From a virus (lineage: Duplodnaviria; Heunggongvirae; Uroviricota; Caudoviricetes): a stretch of DNA of 10,687 nt. The stretch is taken from the IMG/VR virus record IMGVR_UViG_2740892444_000005, positions 1 through 10,687 of that record; one strand, written 5' to 3'. Position 1 is the first letter of the stretch. Each line of letters opens with the position of its first letter. The notes below the pieces were generated by a model. That model made no database searches, had not been told where the DNA came from, and saw only the letters and a list, made by a program, of their open reading frames with translations. Positions 1 to 10,687 of the stretch are shown piece after piece. Both the position numbers and the translations under genes were made by a program.

Positions 1-16
1 TTACAAACTCACTACA

Positions 17-340
17 ATGCTGTATAATTCGCGAAGAGTGAATTTAGCTAGTGCATCCATAGGTTCAATTCCTATGCCTACAATTCTCATCACAGCTCTC
101 CTAATAGTCGCATTTATCCGTTACCTCAACGTGTTACTTAACGATTACGTCAGTAAGGAGAAGCCTATGAGTAAATTATTCTGCCATGTAGTACTATATG
201 TATCTTGTTTCATTGAAACTTTTTGGGCTGGGGTGATAAGTGTAGTAGCGGGTCTGATGACGGGCGGTGTCCAAATTATTTTGGCACTAGCTAAATCTTC
301 TCAATTTTTGTTTTTTTATTCAAAGCACTTACACCCATAA
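17..340 (+). CDS. small hydrophobic protein of unknown function (possible membrane peptide); 5' end unresolved
   Basis: The frame is open back to the window start (no in-frame stop in nt 2-16), so the gene may be 5'-partial. An alternative internal start ATG at 177 is preceded by AAGGAG (165-170). The product has hydrophobic stretches (ILITALLIVAF; GVISVVAGLMTGGVQIILALA). I recognise no family. Confidence 0.3.
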   Translation: MLYNSRRVNLASASIGSIPMPTILITALLIVAFIRYLNVLLNDYVSKEKPMSKLFCHVVLYVSCFIETFWAGVISVVAGLMTGGVQIILALAKSSQFLFFYSKHLHP

Positions 341-908
341 ATATTATTTAAATCAATAAACTAAGTCACTCTACGCATATTTTCCTTATCATGGTCTTTC
401 GTGTTTTTTGTACTCAACATGATCGTTTCCCCTTTCTTTAATACACAGTGTGATTAGCTACGTCTTCTGTTGGAGCGAAGTGGACGGGTTAATTGAGCTG
501 AATGTCAGCTATGAGCGAAGAGCGGACTTGAGACTATTGTAAATGAAAACCATATAATTTTAACCGGCAGAAACACATGAGTAATTTTAAGGCTAATTAG
601 TTATCTGGGAGATGAGGGGCAAAGCACGATATCGTACACCAATGGAATAACCTTATGATTAATATAAATATAAAAGACAGAAAGCCTTCCTCAAAATGGC
701 TTGAATCAGGTGCATCTGTCTGCGAAACGATTTTTTAGACGTTTTTATCGCTTTCAGTTCAGTTTTCCCCTCGAATCCAAGTGACAAAGCCGATTTAGTT
801 TTCACACATCCGTACAATGTGCATCCCTCGATGAGCCTTTTCAGGCAAAGTTACGGGGATGCTTGATTCATTTAAACTGAGTTAGTACAACTTAATTAAT
901 AATATCAT

Positions 909-1955
909 TTATGCTAGAGTTGAATATTCTCCATTTCCTCGGTCGGTGAGTGTTAATTCGCGGCCATTTTCTGTAAATGTAATGGCATCCAGCAGGCTTT
1001 TTCCTGTTACAGCTATACCATATCCAAGGTTATCAATCTTTGAACTGTCCTCAGATGATATTGGTATTTGTACAAGCATACCAACAACAAAGCCGTATTT
1101 GTTAATTATAGGGCCACCGCTATTCCCCCCCTTAACCCTAGCATTGAATAATAAAAAGTCTTGTGAATCTAAGTAAGAGTGACCAGAACCAACAATTCGC
1201 CCCTTTGACAGTCGGACAAACGAATTTATATGCGAAACGTCATATAACTTTAATGCATCAAATCCTGGAATGGGTGGAAATCCTATTGATAAAATTTCAT
1301 CCAGTACCGAGGCTTTGGTTGAGACCTTAAGTGGTTGAATATTATCTTCCTTCGGAATGGTTGTGAAAACTAAAGCGATATCAATACGTTCATCGTTAGA
1401 TACAAAGATTTTATGTATTGGTAAAGCCTCACCACCAGCTCTAAGTATCCTGATACTCTTCATGTCTTCAATAACATGTCTGGCTGTAAATATCGTGTGG
1501 TTATTCCCAACAATAAAACTAGTACCAAGATCATGTGAACCATCACTTTTTTCAACAACAACAGGTAAAACGGAAGGACTAAGGCGGTCTATGATTGACT
1601 CAAATCCATCAGCTATAAAATCATACTTTCCATATTTCGCATCTGATTCATTGAAATTCGGTGCGAAATAGCAACGGTCAAAAAGAGTATGTCCTGAAGA
1701 CAATTCCATTAAAATACCTTCAGTTGCTAGCTTTTCACAATTGCGTATTAACTTCATCATATCGAGAGTATTTTCCCACTCAGGTTTGAGACGGGTCAGG
1801 CTCTCAATTGTTTTTCTCTCTTTTACGTTATCGTTTTCCGGTTTGTCATAAAAATATTTCACTATTTCTGTTGGTGTTACATATGTTTTTTTTATAGTCA
1901 TTTTTGTACCCGCGATGACGTTATTCCATATATTTTTCTTTGTAGAAAATATCAC
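909..1955 (-). CDS. trypsin-like (S1/PA-clan) serine protease with uncharacterised ~135-aa N-terminal domain; no obvious signal peptide
   Basis: 348-aa ORF. The catalytic triad is in canonical order and context: His160 in TARHVIED, Asp192 in DIALVF, Ser279 in GGNSGGP (codons at nt ~1119-1121 on the minus strand). The N-terminus is not hydrophobic, so the protein is probably cytoplasmic. The start at 1955 is GTG; an alternative ATG lies at 1901 (M19). Neither has a strong Shine-Dalgarno sequence. The gene is AT-rich. Confidence 0.8.
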   Translation of the reverse strand: MIFSTKKNIWNNVIAGTKMTIKKTYVTPTEIVKYFYDKPENDNVKERKTIESLTRLKPEWENTLDMMKLIRNCEKLATEGILMELSSGHTLFDRCYFAPNFNESDAKYGKYDFIADGFESIIDRLSPSVLPVVVEKSDGSHDLGTSFIVGNNHTIFTARHVIEDMKSIRILRAGGEALPIHKIFVSNDERIDIALVFTTIPKEDNIQPLKVSTKASVLDEILSIGFPPIPGFDALKLYDVSHINSFVRLSKGRIVGSGHSYLDSQDFLLFNARVKGGNSGGPIINKYGFVVGMLVQIPISSEDSSKIDNLGYGIAVTGKSLLDAITFTENGRELTLTDRGNGEYSTLA

Positions 1956-2361
1956 TATTGCTGGTAAATGTTAAGTTCAGTGCTCGCACTAAAGCTGGAT
2001 GATCAACGTCGCCCTCGTATGGAAATCAGGTAAGATTCATGTCTACTTGGGGTCTAGGGTAGACAGCATAAAAACGTACGATAGCGTTCGATTGGCTCTC
2101 ACCCCCGCCTATAAACCATGAGGTTGATAGGGTAGTATCGTTAGGCAATAGTATACATGTAAGTATCCAACCTAATTGGTCTTGAGATTTCTAACTAACG
2201 TGTCGTTATGTCCGCTTTTGGCACATAGCAGTCCTAGAGACAGTGTCGTAAAGTCATGTAGGATCGGTGGGAGGAGGTAAAAATCCTCTCATACAAAAAT
2301 ACGTAAAATCGATAACGGCTGGAGATCATTCAATACTCGCCCTATCGAAAGCTCACCAGCC

Positions 2362-2397
2362 AGCCGCAACACGTTCTTACATATGACGTGTCTGCGG
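2362..2397. repeat. imperfect-palindrome hairpin element, copy A (paired with copy B at 4832-4867)
   Basis: AGCCGCAACACGTTCTTACATATGACGTGTCTGCGG matches 4832-4867 at 30 of 36 positions. It folds as CCGCA-ACACGTT / AACGTG-TGCGG with a 1-nt bulge. Weaker similarity extends into both flanks (ACCA..GCC upstream, TC.AA.C downstream). Confidence 0.6.
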
Positions 2398-2410
2398 TTT
2401 CAACTCCACC

Positions 2411-2447
2411 AGCCCACCAATCATGATTGGGCTTTTTCGTTTTTCTT
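2411..2447 (+). terminator. putative intrinsic terminator (GC-rich hairpin followed by T-tracts)
   Basis: AGCCCACCAATCATGATTGGGCT (stem AGCCCA/TGGGCT) is followed directly by TTTTTCGTTTTTCTT. The T-run follows the hairpin only on the plus strand. No plus-strand ORF lies upstream of it. Confidence 0.55.
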
Positions 2448-2574
2448 CACCTGCAAGCAAACCGTTGTATCATGGCGGAATGAAGATGAGCTAGGAATAA
2501 TCTTACGAATCAGCTCAATATTCATATAAAAACATTTCGAACTTTGGTGTACAAAACTACATAGGGATAACTTT

Positions 2575-3777
2575 ATGTCTCTTCGTTTCAGACAAACCTT
2601 TACTCTATTTCCTGGCGTTCGACTCAACATTGGCAAGCGTGGAATAAGTGCAAGCATTGGCGTGCCTGGCGCAACTGTCAATGTTGGTAAAAAAGGGGTT
2701 AGAGCAACTGTCGGATTACCGGGCACAGGCTTATCTTATACTACACCTACCTTGCCCTATGATGATGGATACTCAGTTACCAATCCATTAAATCCAGCCC
2801 CTACAGAACCTCATTTGGGGTCTGGGTCATCTCCAGAAAATACACCATCGAACGCTAAAATATATATGCCTGTAGCTGGCATGAATGAAATATCCAGCGC
2901 TTCGGTAGAAGTCCTTACAAGTACCTCCCTTTTACCTTTACGAGATTTGATTGCTAAAGCACGAGAACAAAGAGCAGAAATAAAAGCAGATCTTCAAGAG
3001 GCTCTTGCCGAAGAATCAAAACAAAAAAGCGAGCTGGCTCGACGCAAATCAAGTCTATTCCGTTGGTTTTACAAACGACGCATCGCAGAACTTGAGACAC
3101 TACTCCCCCTAACCCAAGCTGAGATATCTCGCCTAGTTTCATGGGAAGACAGCACAAAAATAGCCATAACATTCGAGAGCAGTGATGCTTCACAGCGCGC
3201 ATATGCAGCGATGGTCCATGCATTTGATATGTTAAAATCGAGTGTCAAAAAATGGGATATTACTGCAGATAAAGCTACAGACCAGTTTGCTGAAAGAACA
3301 TTAGCAACCCGGTCTGTTAATCGTCACCCAGTTACCTTTGATTTTAGTTCAACGGATCTCATTCAATTTACAGGGCGTGCGATGAGGTTTGAAAATGTGA
3401 ATGGAGACGATATTTTGCTTTATCCTGGAGTTGCAGTCATACCACGAGCTGATGGAGCATTCGCTCTGATTGATTTACGCGAATTACAAATTAATTCAGA
3501 ATATCTAAGATTCCATGAGGAAGAAGGTGTTCCCAGTGACTCACGCATAGATGGTTATACATGGGCGAAAACGAATAAGAATGGCTCACCAGACCGTCGT
3601 TTTAAAGATAACTACCAAATCCCTATTTGCATTTATGGAAATATTACTTTCCATTCTCAAACAGGGGTAACTGAAGAATATATGGTATCAAATGCAGATG
3701 CCGCGCACGCCTTTGCTGAGGCAGTAAAACGTTATCAGATTTCACTCACAGAAACAGAAGCGTTGGTACAGGCCTGA
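2575..3777 (+). CDS. DUF4236-type protein (N-terminal Gly/Lys/Arg-rich DUF4236-like module, P/S/T-rich linker, predicted coiled coil, uncharacterised C-terminal domain)
   Basis: 400-aa ORF with ATG at 2575 and RBS AGGGA at 2563-2567. The N-terminus RFRQTFTLFPGVRLNIGKRGISASIGVPGATVNVGKKGVRATVGLPGTGLSY matches my recollection of the DUF4236 signature. A low-complexity linker (PTLPYDDGYSVTNPLNPAPTEPHLGSGSSPENTPSN) and a charged helical segment (AKAREQRAEIKADLQEALAEESKQKSELARRK) follow. I cannot assign the C-terminal ~200 aa. The gene is AT-rich. Confidence 0.85.
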   Translation: MSLRFRQTFTLFPGVRLNIGKRGISASIGVPGATVNVGKKGVRATVGLPGTGLSYTTPTLPYDDGYSVTNPLNPAPTEPHLGSGSSPENTPSNAKIYMPVAGMNEISSASVEVLTSTSLLPLRDLIAKAREQRAEIKADLQEALAEESKQKSELARRKSSLFRWFYKRRIAELETLLPLTQAEISRLVSWEDSTKIAITFESSDASQRAYAAMVHAFDMLKSSVKKWDITADKATDQFAERTLATRSVNRHPVTFDFSSTDLIQFTGRAMRFENVNGDDILLYPGVAVIPRADGAFALIDLRELQINSEYLRFHEEEGVPSDSRIDGYTWAKTNKNGSPDRRFKDNYQIPICIYGNITFHSQTGVTEEYMVSNADAAHAFAEAVKRYQISLTETEALVQA

Positions 3778-3836
3778 TTTATCGCCGATATGGGGACGAA
3801 TCGTAGGTTAAAACCCCCTAGAACAAAAAAAACCTT

Positions 3837-3864
3837 AAGAACCAGACTATTATGGCTGGTTCTT
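3837..3864. other. perfect 9-bp-stem hairpin between the two cassette genes (possible terminator/attenuator)
   Basis: AAGAACCAG-(10 nt loop)-CTGGTTCTT. It lies 60 nt after the stop of the 2575-3777 gene and is preceded by an A8 tract (3823-3830). That gives a T8 run after the hairpin on the minus strand, with a 4-nt spacer. There is no clean T-run after it on the plus strand, so orientation and function are ambiguous. Confidence 0.3.
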
Positions 3865-3881
3865 GTACGGAGGATTTGTTA

Positions 3882-3908
3882 TTGTACAACTCTTCTATCT
3901 GGTATATT
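3882..3908 (+). promoter_or_regulatory. candidate sigma70 promoter with extended -10 for the DUF2971 gene
   Basis: -35-like TTGTAC (3882-3887), a 15-bp spacer (short), TG at 3900-3901 and -10 TATATT (3903-3908), i.e. TGgTATATT. It lies ~80 nt upstream of the ATG at 3991. Motif match only. Confidence 0.3.
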
Positions 3909-3990
3909 TACGGATAGAACTGTTCAGGCTACTCAATCCTTTTTAAGTACAAATGAACAGATAGAAATAGTTATATTGCAAGGAGCTATC

Positions 3991-4779
3991 ATGCACACTG
4001 AGTATATATGGCGATACCTTGACATAGAGAAATTCTCTATGTTACTCGAACAAAATGCTTTATTTTTTTGCTCAGCAAAAAATTTTGAAGATCCGTTCGA
4101 AGGTGAATTTGCTTGGGGACATACTGGCTATAAAAAATTCATTGAGACACAGGAAAAACTATGCGCTACTTATGGTGCCGGCATGGACTTAGATCCTTTC
4201 ATGGCATTCAATTTAAAGACACTTAAGGAAATAAGCGAGAGGACATATATAAGTTGCTGGCATTGTAACGAACATGAATCTGAAGCTATGTGGAAGCTGT
4301 ATTGTAAAAACCCCGCTAAAGGCGTTGTCATAAAATCAAAGAAAAAAAACCTCCAAAGCCAACTTGAAAATAATAATCTAAACAAACTACAATTAAAACA
4401 CGTAAAATACGTCAAAAATTTCTGGATAAAACAATACAATCCAGAATCAGATGTATTCTTTAACAAGAGACCATCTTTCGAATACGAAAAAGAGTTTAGA
4501 GCTATTTTTCAAGAGAATACCTTTAACACTCCACCTGTAAAGGGAAAACTAGTCCCTGTATCTCTTAATAATCTGTTGGAAGAAATAAGGATTTCACCTT
4601 TCGCAGATAAGGATTTCAAAAATGAAGTTTTACAAATTTCAAAAAAACATGGACTAGATCTGAAAGTCAAAAACTCTGAAATTGAAATGCATCCCATCAT
4701 GCATGTTGAGGAAGAAATAATTGCAGAAGGCCCCAATTGGTATCAGTCAAAAATCAGATTGGCAATACGTGATGCTTAA
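3991..4779 (+). CDS. DUF2971-type protein
   Basis: 262-aa product starting at the ATG at 3991, which is preceded by AGGAG (3981-3985). The ORF-track start at 3790 is rejected because it has no RBS and the extension spans the hairpin. The family hallmarks as I recall them are present: YIWRYLDIEKFSMLLEQNALFFCSAKNFEDPFEGEF, CWHCNEHESEAMWKLYCKNPAKGVVIK and FEYEKEFRAIF. The gene is AT-rich. Confidence 0.85.
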   Translation: MHTEYIWRYLDIEKFSMLLEQNALFFCSAKNFEDPFEGEFAWGHTGYKKFIETQEKLCATYGAGMDLDPFMAFNLKTLKEISERTYISCWHCNEHESEAMWKLYCKNPAKGVVIKSKKKNLQSQLENNNLNKLQLKHVKYVKNFWIKQYNPESDVFFNKRPSFEYEKEFRAIFQENTFNTPPVKGKLVPVSLNNLLEEIRISPFADKDFKNEVLQISKKHGLDLKVKNSEIEMHPIMHVEEEIIAEGPNWYQSKIRLAIRDA

Positions 4780-4831
4780 TCTTATATTGAAGTTTTTTAT
4801 GTCTCCTGCTGAAACTAGCTAAAATTTACCA

Positions 4832-4867
4832 AGCCGCAGCACGTTATTGCATACAACGTGTATGCGG
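4832..4867. repeat. imperfect-palindrome hairpin element, copy B; probable bidirectional terminator between convergent DUF2971 gene and tfa
   Basis: AGCCGCAGCACGTTATTGCATACAACGTGTATGCGG has the same fold as copy A. It lies 15 nt from the tfa stop (4883-4885) and ~50 nt after the DUF2971 stop. Confidence 0.6.
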
Positions 4868-4882
4868 CGTATCTCAAAACGA

Positions 4883-5467
4883 TTACTCCATAACAGGGAC
4901 AGCAGGCCACTCAATATCAGGTGCAGTTGATGTATCAACACGGTTCAGCAACACCCGATACTTCTTCCAGGCTTCCAGCAACGAGTTTTCTTCCTCCGTT
5001 GCGATCTCCAGATCTACAGCATCCTGAAGTGGCGCAATATGCTCACTGGCTACCTGCATCAGGCTGTTTTTTGTTTCTTCCGCCTCCCGGATCCGGAACA
5101 GTTTTTCTGCTTCCGTATCCTTCACCCAGGCTGTGCCGTTCCACTTCTGAAACTCCCCTTCCGGCGATAACCAGGTAACATTTTCCGGTAACGGACCGAG
5201 TTCAGAAATAAATAACGCGTCGCCGGAAGCCACGTCATAAACCGTTTTACCCCGATGGTCTTCAACGAGATGCCACGATGCCTCATCACTGTTGAAAACA
5301 GCCACAAAGCCAGCAGGAATATCTGGTGGTGCAATATCGGTACTGTTTGCTGGCAGACCTGTATGAGGCGGAATATATGCGTCACCTTCACCAATAAATT
5401 CATTAGTCCCGACCAGCAGATTATAAATTTTTATGGTCCGTGGTTGTTCACTCATTCTGAATGCCAT
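4883..5467 (-). CDS. tfa: tail fiber assembly protein (lambda Tfa-like)
   Basis: 194-aa product, [18 protein letters not shown]...EWPAVPVME, is near-identical in length and sequence to lambda Tfa as I recall it. Its start overlaps the upstream stf stop (TAATG on the minus strand at 5465-5469). Confidence 0.9.
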
Positions 5468-6678
5468 TATGCAAGCCTCACAATATAGTTAAATGCGATG
5501 TTTTTGACGGTGTTTTCCGCATTACCAGCAGCGTTAACGGTGATGGTGTGTCCATGTGAACCAATCGCAACGGAGTGCGTATGAGCACCAATACCGACAG
5601 TATGCGCGTGTGCACCTGCAGATGCTGCTGTGCCGGACAGTGAGTGGCTATGATTACCATCTGTACTGGTATTAGCTAACCACCCCGTAGACATACCTAC
5701 TGAGCCTTGTACACCCCAGGTATTTTGACCTGAGCTTGTATAACCATATTGATAAGTATCTTTAAAAACACTGGGGTTAAATCGACGGCCATCTCTATGG
5801 CTGTGATTACCAGCTGCATTCGTGCTGCCACTTAAACTATGAGTATGCGCACCAGTGTTATTCGTGGATTTAGTGCCGTAATCAAACGATGATGTGGTTT
5901 TCGTACCCAAATCCGTACTGGATACGCTGGCGCTGTGGGTGTGCGATTTAATGCCGTCCTGTTCCTGAGACAATACGGCACGACCACTGGCGGGCTTGCC
6001 CTTAATCGTCCAGCCACGCATATCAGGGATCACGCCTGACGGATAAGCGGCTGCAAGTTTCGGGTAAGCAGATTTGTCAAAAGTCTGCCCCTGCATCAGG
6101 GCATAACCAGACGGAACGGTATCTGATGGCCACGGGATTGGTGCGCCGACTGGGTAGCTTTCTGGTGGAAGATTTTTCGAGGTATAAACTTCTGCCCAGT
6201 CTTCCTCAAAACCATAACCGTCTCTTGAAGAACGGTAGAACAGACCACCATTTCTGTAATGCGCCTTCATCTGCAGGGTCCGGCAACTTCCGACTCCGGT
6301 ATAGAAGTTAACCAGAATATAGCTGTCGCCAGAGCGGGTGACATTGTAAGCGCCTGATTCGGCATTCCAGGGAACGCCACCATCCGCATCGGCATATGTA
6401 TCCGTTGCCCTTCTGGCAAAAGCAGCCACATGCGCGGCGGTTATCCAGATTAACCAAATCCTTGTTGTTGGGGAATAACTAGGTCCACCTCGCCTGATGT
6501 GGCTAAAAGCAGGCACATAACAGCTAAGTATTTTCAACCAGAGAGAATCCTTAGCGTTGTGGTGAATGCGGCTCAGCGCACGCGGGTTAAGGTTGAGGCT
6601 GACAGTCGACCTTCTGTGGATACCCACCCGCCTGGTGTGCAACCTTCGCCAGGCACCGGGAGGCACCCGGCACCACAA
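5467..6678 (-). pseudogene. stf: side tail fiber protein remnant (C-terminal portion only, 5'-truncated)
   Basis: The C-terminal ~320 aa match the lambda Stf / StfR-type C-terminus as I recall it ([31 protein letters not shown]...[25 protein letters not shown]...[27 protein letters not shown]), including the periodic His-rich motifs (GAHTHS, GNHSHS, GAHAHT, GSHGHT). The N-terminal ~85 aa of the ORF (nt ~6420-6678) read as non-protein-like sequence, and no plausible start or upstream stf body is present. Full-length Stf is far longer. Confidence 0.8.
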
Positions 6679-6701
6679 CTTTATGCTGTGTGTAGTCCTG
6701 G

Positions 6702-6747
6702 CGGTACCAGTTTGTACCCTTGCTTCCGGCTGGTACCGTCCTTTTTT
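6702..6747 (+). terminator. putative intrinsic terminator (9-bp perfect stem, T6 tract)
   Basis: CGGTACCAG (6702-6710) and CTGGTACCG (6730-6738) form a perfect inverted repeat, each arm containing GGTACC, with a 19-nt loop. It is followed by TCC then TTTTTT (6742-6747). The T-run is on the plus strand only. The loop is unusually long. Confidence 0.4.
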
Positions 6748-6748
6748 G

Positions 6749-6835
6749 CAAAACAGAGAAGAGCATCACCGGACGACGGGCTCATAACCCAATCCATCCG
6801 GGCGGCTGCCACCGCAGGTGTTCTTCTCTGTTTTG
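6749..6835. repeat. long inverted repeat / extended hairpin (14-bp perfect arms, ~59-nt spacer) upstream of the yfdP-like gene
   Basis: CAAAACAGAGAAGA (6749-6762) pairs with TCTTCTCTGTTTTG (6822-6835). The pairing extends imperfectly inward (ATCACC.. with ..GGTG). It sits immediately after the 6702-6747 hairpin and ~50 nt upstream of the yfdP-like start. Confidence 0.4.
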
Positions 6836-6884
6836 TGGAGAAACCAACCGACCTTGCAGGGTCGATATGATGAGGAGCAGCAAA

Positions 6885-7247
6885 ATGGCTAGCGAACGCA
6901 GTACTGATGTGCAGGCATTTATCGGGGAGCTGGACGGCGGCGTATTTGAAACCAAAATCGGCGCAGTTCTCAGTGAAGTCGCTTCCGGTGTGATGAACAC
7001 GAAAACCAAAGGGAAGGTCTCACTCAATCTGGAAATCGAACCGTTTGATGAGAACCGTGTGAAAATCAAACACAAACTCTCATATGTTCGCCCAACTAAC
7101 CGCGGGAAAATTTCTGAAGAAGACACCACCGAAACGCCGATGTATGTCAATCGCGGTGGTCGCCTGACTATTCTGCAGGAAGACCAGGGACAATTACTGA
7201 CTCTTGCCGGTGAGCCTGACGGAAAACTCCGCGCAGCAGGTCATTAA
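6885..7247 (+). CDS. yfdP: YfdP-like prophage protein (unknown function)
   Basis: 120-aa product starting MASERSTDVQAFIGELDGG, from the ATG at 6885 preceded by GAGGAG (6872-6877). Alternative in-frame ATGs at 6867 and 6870 would add 5-6 aa. Length and sequence match my recollection of K-12 CPS-53 YfdP; the symbol is from memory. Confidence 0.65.
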   Translation: MASERSTDVQAFIGELDGGVFETKIGAVLSEVASGVMNTKTKGKVSLNLEIEPFDENRVKIKHKLSYVRPTNRGKISEEDTTETPMYVNRGGRLTILQEDQGQLLTLAGEPDGKLRAAGH

Positions 7248-7312
7248 TATCGTTCTTAATTAACTGATTATTTATCTCATCACTGAATATCTTAATATAG
7301 TGAGGACTTATT

Positions 7313-8137
7313 ATGTCTCAGAACTTAGACGCAACCGCAATTAATCAAATCCATGCCCTTATTTCTGCTCAGGGTGTTAATGAAATTATCAGTAAGATTG
7401 GTGCCGATGCTGTGGCATTGCCTGAGAATTTCCGCATTCATGATCTGGAAAAATTTAATTTAAATCGCTTCCGTTTCCGTGGTGCGCTTTCCACTGCCAG
7501 CATCGATGACTTTACCCGTTATTCTAAAGATCTTGCAGATGAAGGCACCCGCTGCTTTATCGATGCTGATAATATGCGTGCCGTCAGTGTGCTTAACCTG
7601 GGTACTATTGATGAACCAGGTCACGCAGATAACACCGCCACTCTCAAACTGAAAAAGACAGCACCGTTCTCTGCCCTGTTGTCTGTTAACGGCGAGCGTA
7701 ACGCCCAGAAATCACTGGCAGAATGGATTGAAGACTGGGCAGACTACCTTGTGGGCTTTGATGCTAATGGTGACGCCATTCAGGCAACAAAAGCGGCTGC
7801 GGCAATCCGTAAAATCACGATTGAAGCAAACCAGACCGCTGATTTTGAAGATAATGACTTCAGCGGCAAACGCTCCCTGATGGAATCTGTCGAAGCGAAG
7901 ACCAAAGACATTATGCCAGTGGCATTTGAATTTAAATGCGTTCCGTTTGAAGGTCTGAAAGAACGTCCGTTTAAATTACGCCTCAGCATTATCACTGGCG
8001 ATCGTCCTGTACTGGTTCTGCGCATTATTCAGCTGGAAGCGGTGCAGGAAGATATGGCTAACGAATTTCGTGATCTGCTTGTTGAGAAATTCAAAGACAG
8101 CAAAGTAGAAACCTTTATTGGTACTTTCACCGCCTGA
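7313..8137 (+). CDS. yfdQ: YfdQ-like prophage protein (DUF2303 family)
   Basis: 274-aa product starting [26 protein letters not shown], with RBS GAGGA at 7303-7307. It matches my recollection of K-12 YfdQ (274 aa). Confidence 0.8.
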
Positions 8138-8149
8138 TTTCATTACTGC

Positions 8150-8171
8150 AAATGCCCCTGTGGGGGCATTT
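8150..8171 (+). other. hairpin after yfdQ-like gene (weak candidate terminator/attenuator)
   Basis: AAATGCCCC-TGTG-GGGGCATTT: a 9-bp perfect stem with a 4-nt loop, 13 nt after the yfdQ stop. The T residues lie inside the 3' arm rather than forming a free U-tract, so termination is uncertain. Confidence 0.25.
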
Positions 8172-8264
8172 ATGGAAACGTAATTAACTCAATAATCACC
8201 GAATGGTGAGGGCTTCCTTTTACCCAAACTCAGCGCGGTGCAGCGCATATACGTGGAGAACAAA

Positions 8265-8801
8265 ATGTCATTTATTAAAACTTTTTCCGGGAAGCATTTT
8301 TATTATGACAAGATAAATAAAGACGACATCGTGATTAACGATATCGCGGTTTCCCTTTCAAATATCTGCCGCTTTGCCGGTCATCTTTCTCACTTCTACA
8401 GTGTCGCCCAACATGCGGTGCTTTGCAGCCAGCTGGTGCCGCAGGAATTTGCTTTTGAAGCGTTAATGCATGATGCAACAGAAGCGTATTGCCAGGACAT
8501 CCCCGCACCACTGAAACGCCTTCTTCCTGACTATAAACGGATGGAAGAAAAAATAGATGCAGTAATCCGTGAGAAATACGGGTTACCTCCTGTTATGAGC
8601 ACGCCAGTGAAATATGCCGATCTCATTATGCTGGCAACCGAACGCCGTGATCTCGGGCTTGATGATGGCTCTTTATGGCCTGTACTGGAAGGTATCCCGG
8701 CAACAGAGATGTTCAAAGTTATTCCACTGGCACCGGGCCATGCCTACGGGATGTTTATGGAACGCTTCAACGAGTTATCGGAATTACGCAAATGTGCATA
8801 A
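8265..8801 (+). CDS. yfdR: HD-domain phosphohydrolase (YfdR-like)
   Basis: 178-aa product from the ATG at 8265 (RBS GGAGAA at 8255-8260; the ORF-track start at 8238 is rejected). It has HD-superfamily motifs (HLSHFYSVAQHAVL; ALMHDATEAYCQD). It matches my recollection of K-12 YfdR. Confidence 0.85.
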   Translation: MSFIKTFSGKHFYYDKINKDDIVINDIAVSLSNICRFAGHLSHFYSVAQHAVLCSQLVPQEFAFEALMHDATEAYCQDIPAPLKRLLPDYKRMEEKIDAVIREKYGLPPVMSTPVKYADLIMLATERRDLGLDDGSLWPVLEGIPATEMFKVIPLAPGHAYGMFMERFNELSELRKCA

Positions 8802-9670
8802 CTCATGTAGTTAGTTTTTCTGGCGGGAGAACATCCGCATATCTTGTTCACCTGATGGAAGAACAAAGAAAGGCTGGCAATAACGTCTGCTACATCTTTA
8901 TGGATACCGGTTGCGAACATCCGCTGACATACCGCTTTATCCGGGAGGTTGTGAAGTTCTGGGACATACCACTAACTGTGTTACAGGTCGATATAAATCC
9001 TGAGCTTGGGCAGCCAAATGGTTATACAGAATGGGAGCCAAAGGATATTCAGACACGAATGCCGGTGCTTAAACCGTTTATGGACATGGTTAAAAAGTAC
9101 GGCACGCCATACATCGGCGGCGCGTTCTGTACTGACAGGCTAAAACTCATCCCTTTCACGAAATACTGCGATAACCATTTCGGACGAGGTAATTACATCA
9201 CATGGCTGGGTATTCGTGCAGACGAACCCCGTAGGCTGAAACCGAAATCGGGCATCCGGTATCTTGCCGAGCTGTCAGATTTTGATAAGTCGGATGTTAT
9301 CCGGTGGTGGCGAAAACAACCTTTTGATTTGCAAATCCCGGAGCATCTCGGGAACTGTGTTTTCTGCATCAAAAAGTCAACGCAAAAGCTGGGGCTTGCA
9401 TGTAAAGACGAACCAGGTCTGATGCGAGTTTTTAATGAGCTGGTTACAGGCAAACACGTCAGGGATGGTCATCGCAGAACAGGTAAAGACATTATGTACC
9501 GTGGTCACCTGACGCTTGACGGAATTGCCAGAATGTCTGCCAACAGCGACTACAGAAATTTGTATCAGGCAATGGTACAGGCCAGGCGATTCGATACCGG
9601 CTCGTGTTCAGAGTCATGTGAAATCTGGGGTGATCAATTGGAATTGGAATTCGAAGAGGTAGGGGTATGA
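8792..9670 (+). CDS. PAPS-reductase-like / PP-loop ATP-pyrophosphatase family protein (phage type)
   Basis: 292-aa product from the ATG at 8792, which overlaps the yfdR stop (ATGTGCATAA). The N-terminal PP-loop motif SFSGGRTS is present. Relatives are common in lambdoid prophage early regions. The ORF-track start at 8675 is rejected because it would overlap yfdR by ~40 codons. Confidence 0.8.
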   Translation: MCITHVVSFSGGRTSAYLVHLMEEQRKAGNNVCYIFMDTGCEHPLTYRFIREVVKFWDIPLTVLQVDINPELGQPNGYTEWEPKDIQTRMPVLKPFMDMVKKYGTPYIGGAFCTDRLKLIPFTKYCDNHFGRGNYITWLGIRADEPRRLKPKSGIRYLAELSDFDKSDVIRWWRKQPFDLQIPEHLGNCVFCIKKSTQKLGLACKDEPGLMRVFNELVTGKHVRDGHRRTGKDIMYRGHLTLDGIARMSANSDYRNLYQAMVQARRFDTGSCSESCEIWGDQLELEFEEVGV

Positions 9671-10011
9671 CAACCGAAATCAGCTACCATGCACTGCTTG
9701 AGCGCGCACGGAATAAAGTGCAGAGCATTGAGTTCGCCTTAACACAGAGTGCATTCGCTGAGATTCGCGCTGAGCTTGAAAATGATTTAGAACTGGCACG
9801 GATTGCACTGGCATCTCTGGAAGTTGAGCCAGATGAACGCGCAGCCTATGAATTATTTATGGAAAAGCGTTTCGGTAAAACAGTCGATCGTCGGAGAGCA
9901 AAAAACGGCGATAACGAATACATGGCATGGGATATGACTCTCGGTTGGATCGTCTGGCAGCAACGAGCTGGTATCCATTTTTCAACAATGTCACAGCAAG
10001 AGGTGAAATAA
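9667..10011 (+). CDS. hypothetical prophage early-region protein
   Basis: 114-aa ORF. Its ATG overlaps the upstream stop (ATGA at 9667-9670) and its stop overlaps the xis start (TAATG at 10009-10013). Acidic, helical-looking sequence. No family recognised. Confidence 0.65.
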   Translation: MTTEISYHALLERARNKVQSIEFALTQSAFAEIRAELENDLELARIALASLEVEPDERAAYELFMEKRFGKTVDRRRAKNGDNEYMAWDMTLGWIVWQQRAGIHFSTMSQQEVK

Positions 10012-10361
10012 TGGAGCCATACAGCCTCACACTCGATGAGGCCTGTCATTTTCTCAAGATATCCAGACCGACTGCCATTAACTGGATACGCACAGGGCGT
10101 CTTCAGGCAACACGCAAAGATCCCACTAAGAATAAATCTCCTTACCTCACAACACGACAAGCCTGCATTGCGGCTCTTCAGTCTCCGCTGCATACTGTCC
10201 AGGTGAGCGCGGGTGATGGCATAACAGAGGAAAGAAAATGTCACTCTTCCGCAGAGGTGAAATATGGTACGCCAGTTTCACATTGCCGAACGGTAAAAGA
10301 TTTAAACAGTCTCTTGGAACAAAGGACAAAAGGCAGGCGACAGAACTCCATGACAAGCTAA
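10011..10361 (+). CDS. xis: excisionase (P22 Xis-like)
   Basis: 116-aa product [40 protein letters not shown], with RBS GAGGTGA at 10002-10008. It matches my recollection of P22-type Xis in length and sequence. It sits immediately upstream of, and overlapping, the integrase start. Confidence 0.75.
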
Positions 10362-10687
10362 AGGCTGAAGCATGGCGGGTCAGCAAACTTGGTGAAATAC
10401 CTGATATAACGTTCGAGGAAGCGTGTGTCAGGTGGCTTGAAGAGAAAGCACATAAAAAATCACTGGACGATGACAAAAGCCGGATCGGATTCTGGCTTCA
10501 ACATTTCGCAGGAATGCAACTAAGAGACATTACTGAATCAAAAATTTATTCAGCAATGCAGAAAATGACGAACCGGCGTCATGAGGAAAACTGGAAACTC
10601 AGGGCAGAAGCATGCAGAAAAAAAGGGAAACCTGTTCCAGAATACACGCCAAAACCAGCGTCCGTTGCAACGAAGGCTACGCACTGA
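10238..10687 (+). CDS. int: tyrosine integrase, N-terminal (arm-binding) region only; frame ends at TGA 10685-10687
   Basis: [46 protein letters not shown] is the N-terminus of P22 / CPS-53 IntS-type integrases as I recall them. RBS AGAGGA at 10226-10231. The frame terminates after 149 aa, whereas family members are ~385 aa. No catalytic domain is visible in this window. Confidence 0.8.

Follow-up and report, generated by a model that had tools for sequence, protein, structure and literature searches.

The analysed DNA (hereafter the window, 10,687 nt) comprises positions 1–10,687 of the IMG/VR virus record IMGVR_UViG_2740892444_000005 (Caudoviricetes) and represents a deleted lambdoid prophage at the tRNA gene thrW. 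Its left 4.8 kb is AT-rich and abuts the tail-fibre assembly gene tfa. This block is very likely an accessory compartment of the prophage and the homologue of the b region of phage lambda; the genes in the block would be exchanged between lambdoid phages and would have an anti-phage role. The compartment is ordered attR, outer slot, conserved non-coding element of ~190 bp ending in a hairpin (copy A), inner slot, second hairpin (copy B) and tfa. The cargo carried here is mosaic: it combines at least three modules that move independently, and no virion or replication function is encoded in any of them. An initial annotation, based on the letters of the window, had described positions 1–4880 as horizontally acquired low-GC cargo in a swappable slot beside a GC-balanced prophage backbone; the observation was confirmed and the interpretation supported, with the amendments given below. 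The coordinates of the features are listed in Table 1.

The G+C content (GC) is 38.8% over 1–4880 and 47.9% over 4881–10687. In sliding windows it ranges from 0.32 to 0.45 over the left 4.8 kb and from 0.42 to 0.56 further right, and the maximum-likelihood single change point was located at 4828 (log-likelihood ratio 46). In a block permutation (100-nt blocks) the observed difference was attained in 0 of 20,000 cases. GC at third codon positions (GC3) was 0.31, 0.28, 0.30 and 0.32 for four cargo genes and 0.43–0.50 for nine backbone genes, with no overlap between the two sets (exact Mann–Whitney p = 0.0028). The shift that the initial annotation had placed near 4880 by eye is therefore borne out, as is its coincidence with the tfa stop codon (4883–4885) and repeat copy B: the change point and the homology breakpoints fall at hairpin B, and homology to relatives carrying other cargo ends at 4832. 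The figure of ~35% GC was too low, although the block is indeed AT-rich; the mean is 39% and the block is heterogeneous, with values of 0.32–0.39 at both ends and 0.42–0.45 over 2000–3400, a peak which spans the conserved element and the DUF4236 gene. Recursive GC segmentation with a strict threshold yielded no break besides 4828, and the internal mosaic was set from homology breaks at ~500, 2205/2211, 2398 and 4832, not from GC. Sigma-70-like promoter matches are somewhat enriched over 1–5600 (22 versus 15.7 ± 2.9 in shuffled sequences), as expected for AT-rich DNA, which is likely to be a target of H-NS.

The right edge of the proposed island stood and the left edge did not, as the low-GC block runs ~1.6 kb beyond base 1 up to the attR copy of thrW. 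This copy consists of 48–64 nt of the 3′ half of thrW (6378–6425 of the related locus L002, in which base 1 of the window is position 8001), and the genuine thrW adjoins int. The thrW repeat lies outside the cargo; therefore the integrated element includes the low-GC block, which lies between tfa and attR. The whole block measures ~6.5 kb with 40% GC, and the host flank and the tail genes are both at 55%. A megablast search against 5,426 complete Escherichia coli genomes found none with the entire window. In 13 genomes the sequence is 100% identical over 1–5096 and 8902–10683, and their locus closes with a tyrosine integrase adjoining tRNA-Thr (thrW) and proA. In strain Ec1119 the identical cargo follows an intact tfa–stfR–lom–J tail module.

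These arrangements also bear on the possibility that the AT-rich block belongs to the ordinary host chromosome or is a distinct genomic island abutting the prophage. Prophage callers often stop at tfa, no isolated phage genome in the collection searched contains the cargo DNA and, in strain VE-T2, remnants of IS3 and other mobile elements are found just beyond the block, all of which would fit such an origin. It is nevertheless scarcely credible given the thrW repeat outside the cargo and the intact tail module before identical cargo in Ec1119. In PSJ-29, moreover, the DUF4236/DUF2971 cassette travels with tfa to another att site (tRNA-Pro), the packaged genome of lambda is laid out in the same way, and all proteins tested against PHROGs (the 57-residue open reading frame excepted) match phage-protein families of unknown function, full-length or nearly so. 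The behaviour of the prophage callers was quantified using 80 IMG/VR loci encoding a Tfa 94–97% identical to that of the window: 16 of the 80 contigs end no more than 25 nt from the tfa stop codon (L010, L015, L020, L025, L029, L036, L040, L045, L046, L048, L051, L058, L061, L062, L077 and L079), so automated prophage boundaries tend to clip this cargo compartment.

Homology to lambda was established through the anchors of the compartment. The b region of lambda (tfa–ea47–ea31–ea59–attP) has in common with the window the position between tfa and att, the ~190-bp element, both hairpins (84–89%), the two slots and the AT bias. Positions 2198–2397 align to lambda between ea31 and ea47 (83.7%), and positions 4834–5616 to lambda tfa and its hairpin (94.4%). 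The order in a lambda lysogen of K-12 is tfa, hairpin, ea47, hairpin and element, ea31, ea59 and the bio side of att, with the element thus between ea47 and ea31. The two regions differ in their slot genes, which are unrelated, and in their sites, the present remnant being at thrW and lambda at attB(lambda) between gal and bio. A relationship between the DUF4236 protein and Ea47 was considered and rejected, as there is no similarity. For lambda Ea59 (with ea31 at 3382–5846 of locus L006) PADLOC reported PtuA with a value of 8.8e-185, and Ea59 and Ea31 matched PDC-M01A/B with values of up to 8e-202 and 5.8e-113; the outer slot of lambda therefore holds a Septu-type ATPase and HNH-nuclease pair.

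The composition of the lambda b region (36% GC versus 54% for tfa to J) also limits what can be read from the AT bias. Because lambda's own b region is equally AT-biased, AT-richness is a standing property of the compartment, and low GC alone is no proof of a recent foreign donor. Of the proposal that the cargo has a different origin, the accessory nature is upheld and the argument from low GC alone is not. Among the 80 loci, 42 had enough downstream DNA for comparison; their mean GC changes from 0.492 in the 2 kb ending at the tfa stop to 0.380 in the next 2 kb, with a drop of at least 0.05 in 39 of the 42 and a rise in none. The AT bias may stem from a common pool of mobile genes under xenogeneic silencing and not from a single foreign donor. 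Homologues of the S1 peptidase and of the DUF4236 protein remain under the GC of their hosts, even in high-GC hosts.

The two slots have alternative occupants. In the window the inner slot contains the DUF4236 and DUF2971 genes; in lambda it contains ea47, and in Ec-U11 (locus L004) it is empty, the element with a single hairpin abutting tfa. The outer slot contains the S1 peptidase gene and its neighbours here, ea31/ea59 in lambda and Avs2 in Ec-U11 and E2386. Ec-U11 has the same thrW site and the same integrase (WP_001132557.1), but Avs2 between tfa and the att repeat. That the inner slot is empty in some prophages is consistent with, but no test of, dispensability for phage growth. Over the first 300 nt downstream of tfa, 23 distinct sequence variants were found among the 42 loci, and the element is offset from the tfa stop by +16, +1064, +1480, +1605 (the lambda/ea47 class), +1758, +2486 (the class of the window), +2817 or +4130. 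The proteins predicted downstream of tfa form 82 families and make up more than 12 unrelated contents. Those recognized using Pfam and PADLOC include a McrB-like AAA protein with McrC, a retron type XII reverse transcriptase (RT)–TIR protein (6.5e-188), a DRT UG17 RT (8.3e-159), a Pin-type invertase, an S-adenosylmethionine methyltransferase, a secreted alpha/beta hydrolase and an omptin. Mn-catalase, a GGDEF protein, AraC-type regulators and insertion-sequence transposases were recognized by eye and not by profile. In locus L085 the slot (~+918 to +3018 from tfa) contains a three-gene cluster, the middle protein of which matches Pfam Exo_endo_phos; by appearance, and without a profile check, the cluster looks like CdtA, CdtB and CdtC of cytolethal distending toxin, the middle protein being read as CdtB.

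The anchors are ubiquitous and the modules rare (1–2% of genomes). In the 5,426 complete E. coli genomes tfa is present in 5,234 (96%), with a median of three copies, and the ~190-bp element was counted 16,212 times, in 5,388 genomes. The DUF4236/DUF2971 cassette was found in 123 genomes, in 122 of them as a unit, and the S1 peptidase module in 52, of which 15 contain at least 80% of 1–2205. Because other occupants are found at the same site and the cargo modules are rare, the left region is not conserved backbone, and the view that accessory cargo occupies a swappable slot beside the tail-fibre genes is supported, Avs2 being one alternative content among many unrelated ones.

The hairpins and the element were analysed further. 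Copies A and B are 81% identical (29 of 36 positions, direct comparison). The pair was not detected by a generic repeat finder, which is blind to it because there is no exact 10-mer seed; a pair that this program did report (D5, 286–304 and 4814–4832) looks like chance and was discarded. An Rfam search of the cargo and the element gave no match, and RNAalifold gave no covariation support for an RNA structure in the element.

Cassettes would be exchanged mainly at the common flanks, by homologous recombination of lambdoid phages that share a host as co-residents or through superinfection, with some junctions lying elsewhere, including inside the 3′ end of tfa. This mechanism is the most likely one because relatives have common anchors and tail-fibre genes yet unrelated AT-rich genes between them. 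Homologous recombination of lambda with Rac and Qin in the stf/tfa region has been demonstrated experimentally (PMC3945230). We judge it very unlikely that the inner slot is instead a true cassette site at an attC-like hairpin, and, separately, that the DUF4236 protein and the solo cytoplasmic S1 protease are new single-gene immunity proteins. In the former case the 36-nt imperfect hairpin would be a structure-specific target of recombination or insertion, with one copy at an empty slot and two at an occupied one, and lambdoid phages would have a dedicated mechanism, distinct from general homologous recombination, for reshuffling cassettes that each carry single-gene defences (ea47, DUF4236/DUF2971, a methyltransferase and others). 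The one- and two-hairpin pattern fits an integron-type comparison; no IntI is present, many cargo classes are without the hairpin and the covariation is weak.

The outermost module breaks at ~490–530, as judged by matches to other genomes, and continues to the left of the window to a PDC-S64/HEPN-like gene followed by the attR copy of thrW. The encoded protein (288 residues) matched PADLOC PDC-S64 (1.8e-21), with HEPN and DUF3644 matches below threshold, and no relative was found in the PDB. At the boundary of this module a 111-nt piece (417–527) was also found, with 96% identity, on three large plasmids of E. coli and at another chromosomal location, and may be a small dispersed repeat.

The S1 peptidase is HtrA-type, with the catalytic triad H142, D174 and S261 (Pfam Trypsin_2, 1.9e-17), and matches phrog_18002 over its full length. 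Sequence matches in the PDB were confined to the protease domains of HtrA/DegS, and the N-terminal ~120 residues are without assignment. The protease domain is thus that of HtrA/DegP/DegS, but no PDZ domain was detected and the N-terminus (MTIKKTYVTPTEIV...) shows no signal peptide, as read from the sequence without a predictor. Only residues 133–298, the protease domain, match the protease modules of PADLOC RT-Protease_XI, LmuA and HamA (retron type XI, Lamassu and Hachiman), and the 1.7-kb mobile unit contains neither an RT nor LmuB or HamB as a partner. This unit (490/504–2205) moves alone in ~40 genomes. In strain A32 the gene stands solo at the Pin/tail-fibre end of another prophage, and in Nitrospina a homologue is a solo gene with 40% GC in a genome with 56% GC.

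The DUF4236 protein begins with the DUF4236 domain (55 residues), followed by a disordered linker and a long coiled coil; its C-terminal alpha/beta domain was modelled with confidence, and no informative structural or sequence neighbour was found for that domain. Its identity is 93% in Klebsiella and 65–68% over the full length in Rhodobacterales (Paracoccus, Sedimentitalea and Phaeobacter), a conservation between Enterobacterales and Rhodobacterales that is unusually high for a mobile gene without assigned function. A Klebsiella prophage has the gene alone at its very end, with the tail fibre on one side and smpB/ssrA on the other. For the DUF2971 gene the start is at 3991, and not at 3790 (the longer open reading frame) or 4039 (RefSeq), because the sequence AAGGAG lies 5 nt upstream and homologues have 262 residues with full coverage. 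Its product matched Pfam PF11185 with 30.7 bits (cut-off 22) and PADLOC PDC-S31 (2.6e-20), and its model has a DarT-like ADP-ribosyltransferase (ART) fold. Tyr140 and Glu166-x-Glu168 are invariant in 44 homologues and, by their position in the modelled fold, would correspond to the motif II Tyr and the motif III ExE; DUF2971 has been predicted to be an ART with these motifs (PMC12522546). No N-terminal signal peptide and no secretion partner were seen for it in the window, as read from the sequence. An 81% identical homologue stands solo after ogr in a P2-like prophage. An obligate two-gene DUF4236–DUF2971 system was considered and rejected, as each gene occurs alone elsewhere and a hairpin and a separate Shine–Dalgarno sequence lie between them; because this hairpin, with its A8 run, intervenes, the two genes are probably separate transcription units.

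An anti-phage role is suggested by the neighbours in the slot, by the matches to candidate families and by the DarT-like fold. The cargo genes would be expressed in the lysogen as single-gene anti-phage factors acting by abortive infection or exclusion. On infection, DUF2971 would act as a DarT-like ART, its expected target being nucleic acid or an essential protein, and the cytoplasmic HtrA-type S1 protease would be a proteolytic effector similar to Lit; the DUF4236 protein and the HEPN-like PDC-S64 protein would also act against phages. DUF2971 differs from DarTG in that its neighbours, DUF4236 and tfa, include no DarG macrodomain partner. Aristaios, a DUF2971 protein of Lactococcus, has published antiphage activity (PMC11381338); the likeness is at the level of the family. 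Lit of e14 is, like the S1 peptidase, a cytoplasmic protease carried as prophage cargo, but is a zinc metalloprotease. The locus also resembles the defence hotspots of prophages and satellites in its fixed position, conserved flanks and variable, often defensive, cargo (PMC10121019), and Avs2, retron, DRT, McrBC and Septu-like systems were found at the same position in relatives. It differs from the P2/P4 hotspots of Rousset et al. (2022), as cited in PMC11364771, in being a lambdoid tail-fibre-distal slot that also holds virulence and metabolic morons.

A role of the cargo in the lytic cycle or host takeover, with delayed-early expression from pL as for lambda ea47/ea31/ea59, is unlikely. The DUF4236 and DUF2971 genes are oriented as lambda ea47, toward tfa, so that read-through from the int side would be possible in an intact phage, and phages are known to use ADP-ribosyltransferases on host proteins (Alt, ModA and ModB of T4). 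The modules are, however, retained intact with 99–100% identity in remnants stripped of all lytic genes, each also occurs solo in non-phage or different-phage contexts, and other occupants of the same slot (Avs2, retron, DRT and McrBC) are host-protective. It is highly improbable that the cargo encodes bacterial virulence or fitness factors, such as a secreted protease or toxin comparable to Cdt and omptin in sister prophages. The slot in relatives does contain a Cdt-like three-gene cluster, omptin and AraC-type regulators, and DUF2971 proteins have been proposed as Legionella effectors (PMC12522546), but for the S1 peptidase and DUF2971 neither an N-terminal signal peptide nor, within the window, a partner for secretion was seen, and the carrier strains come from diverse sources (pig, chicken, sheep, carrots, water and human) with no pathotype association.

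Several points weigh against an accessory compartment with homologous exchange and an anti-phage role. In around half of the cargo classes hairpin B is missing and divergence sets in at the 3′ end of tfa or within it, so that this hairpin is a frequent but not an obligatory junction. The hairpins may act as terminators; neither A nor B was called by a scan with a consensus terminator, and since they are without a clear U-tract this role is unproven. The slot in relatives also holds non-defence cargo (omptin, the Cdt-like cluster, Mn-catalase, GGDEF protein and AraC regulators), so location in the slot alone is no proof of defence. The PDC families of PADLOC are candidates only, and phage resistance by the four cargo genes is what we infer. 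A megablast search of the cargo against isolated phage genomes gave no match, and tblastn against isolated phages gave only distant homologues in Microcystis phages (32%).

Table 1. Features of the window, in order of position.
Feature	Position	Strand	Remarks
Outermost cargo module, right end	1–500	+	Small hydrophobic open reading frame 167–340 (57 residues, no family)
Solo S1 peptidase module	500–2205	−	Gene 909–1901, 330 residues
Conserved ~190-bp non-coding element	2211–2397		Separates outer and inner slots
Hairpin copy A	2363–2398		GCCGCAACACGTT-N-ACGTGTCTGCGGT; inner end of element
Inner cassette	2399–4832	+	DUF4236 gene, intergenic hairpin, DUF2971 gene
DUF4236 gene	2575–3777	+	400 residues
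Intergenic hairpin	3837–3864		9-bp stem; A8 run before (T8 after hairpin on minus strand)
DUF2971 gene	3991–4779	+	262 residues; Shine–Dalgarno AAGGAG 3980–3985
Hairpin copy B	4833–4868		36-nt inverted repeat; 14 nt 3′ of tfa stop codon
tfa, tail-fibre assembly	4883–5467	−	194 residues; Pfam Caudo_TAP 7.8e-45; first backbone gene
stf C-terminal fragment, side tail fibre	5467–6443	−	Pfam Collar, Phage_fiber, gp37_C
Early-left and integration remnant	6885–10687	+	thrW next in relatives
yfdP-like gene	6885–7247	+	
yfdQ	7313–8137	+	
yfdR	8265–8801	+	
PAPS-reductase family gene	8792–9670	+	
Hypothetical gene	9667–10011	+	
HTH_17 xis-like gene	10011–10361	+	
Tyrosine integrase, 5′ part	from 10283	+	

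The backbone has the higher GC attributed to it by the initial annotation but is only a deletion remnant of ~5.8 kb, consisting of tfa, a C-terminal stf fragment, early-left genes, a xis-like gene and int. At the deletion junction (6439–6443) the stf fragment and the early-left region are fused, the overlap being 5 nt. The same prophage was found with two distinct internal deletions, that of the window and another in the 13 closest genomes; the latter are without 5097–8901, and tfa is joined to the PAPS-reductase gene with a 9-nt overlap (13089–13097 of L001). The last four bases of the window (10684–10687, CTGA) are unlike all close relatives, the matches to which end at 10683 (L001 reads TCTT there), and give an in-frame stop after residue 149 of the integrase; they may be the edge of an insertion just past the window. 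The Rfam search yielded a full-length IS009 match at 4926–5124 (minus strand) inside the tfa coding sequence (227 bits; gathering score 117), and a match similar to STnc100 in non-coding DNA upstream of the yfdP-like gene at 6526–6749 (plus strand), which is below threshold (40.3 bits versus a gathering score of 47, E = 4.5e-6).

The initial annotation had drawn a comparison with K-12 CPS-53, as carrying gtr-type genes in the equivalent neighbourhood. Alignment to CPS-53 (KplE1) gave common DNA at 6866–8799 and 9802–10064 only, tfa and the cargo being unmatched. Both are decayed prophages with cargo beside tail-fibre-assembly remnants, and yfdP–yfdQ–yfdR are 98.8% identical. The comparison was right as to content, yfdG/H/I being beside the tfaS/yfdK remnants, but not as to layout: CPS-53 occupies argW, has intS at one end and torI at the other, and carries the gtrABS-type yfdGHI between intS and the fibre remnants with tfaS, whereas relatives of the window are at thrW with a different int beside the xis-like HTH gene. 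As thrW is the site of P22 and of Shigella serotype-converting phages, with gtr clusters beside att, the analogy is reasonable in spirit. Over 8799–9802 the PAPS-reductase gene stands where K-12 CPS-53 has yfdS/yfdT; this is a second mosaic replacement, within the backbone.

The AT-rich b region of lambda, morons and fixed-position defence hotspots of prophages are already known, and the locus is a fresh instance with uncharacterized occupants. A limited literature search found no published description of the two-slot anatomy delimited by hairpins and element, which we do not claim to be unpublished. The analysis ties a raw compositional anomaly to a precise and reusable anatomy: the tfa stop with its hairpin, the ~190-bp element and att are anchors with which cargo can be harvested from the ~14,000 loci at which complete E. 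coli genomes carry tfa, cargo that many automated prophage calls clip. Four rare genes, encoding DUF2971, DUF4236, the HtrA-type protease and the PDC-S64 protein, are nominated as candidate single-gene anti-phage factors, and the long-enigmatic ea47, ea31 and ea59 of lambda are placed in the same two slots. Current concepts are unchanged: that the accessory and defence genes of temperate phages are AT-rich, occupy fixed positions and are swapped rapidly is a known rule, of which the locus is one example.

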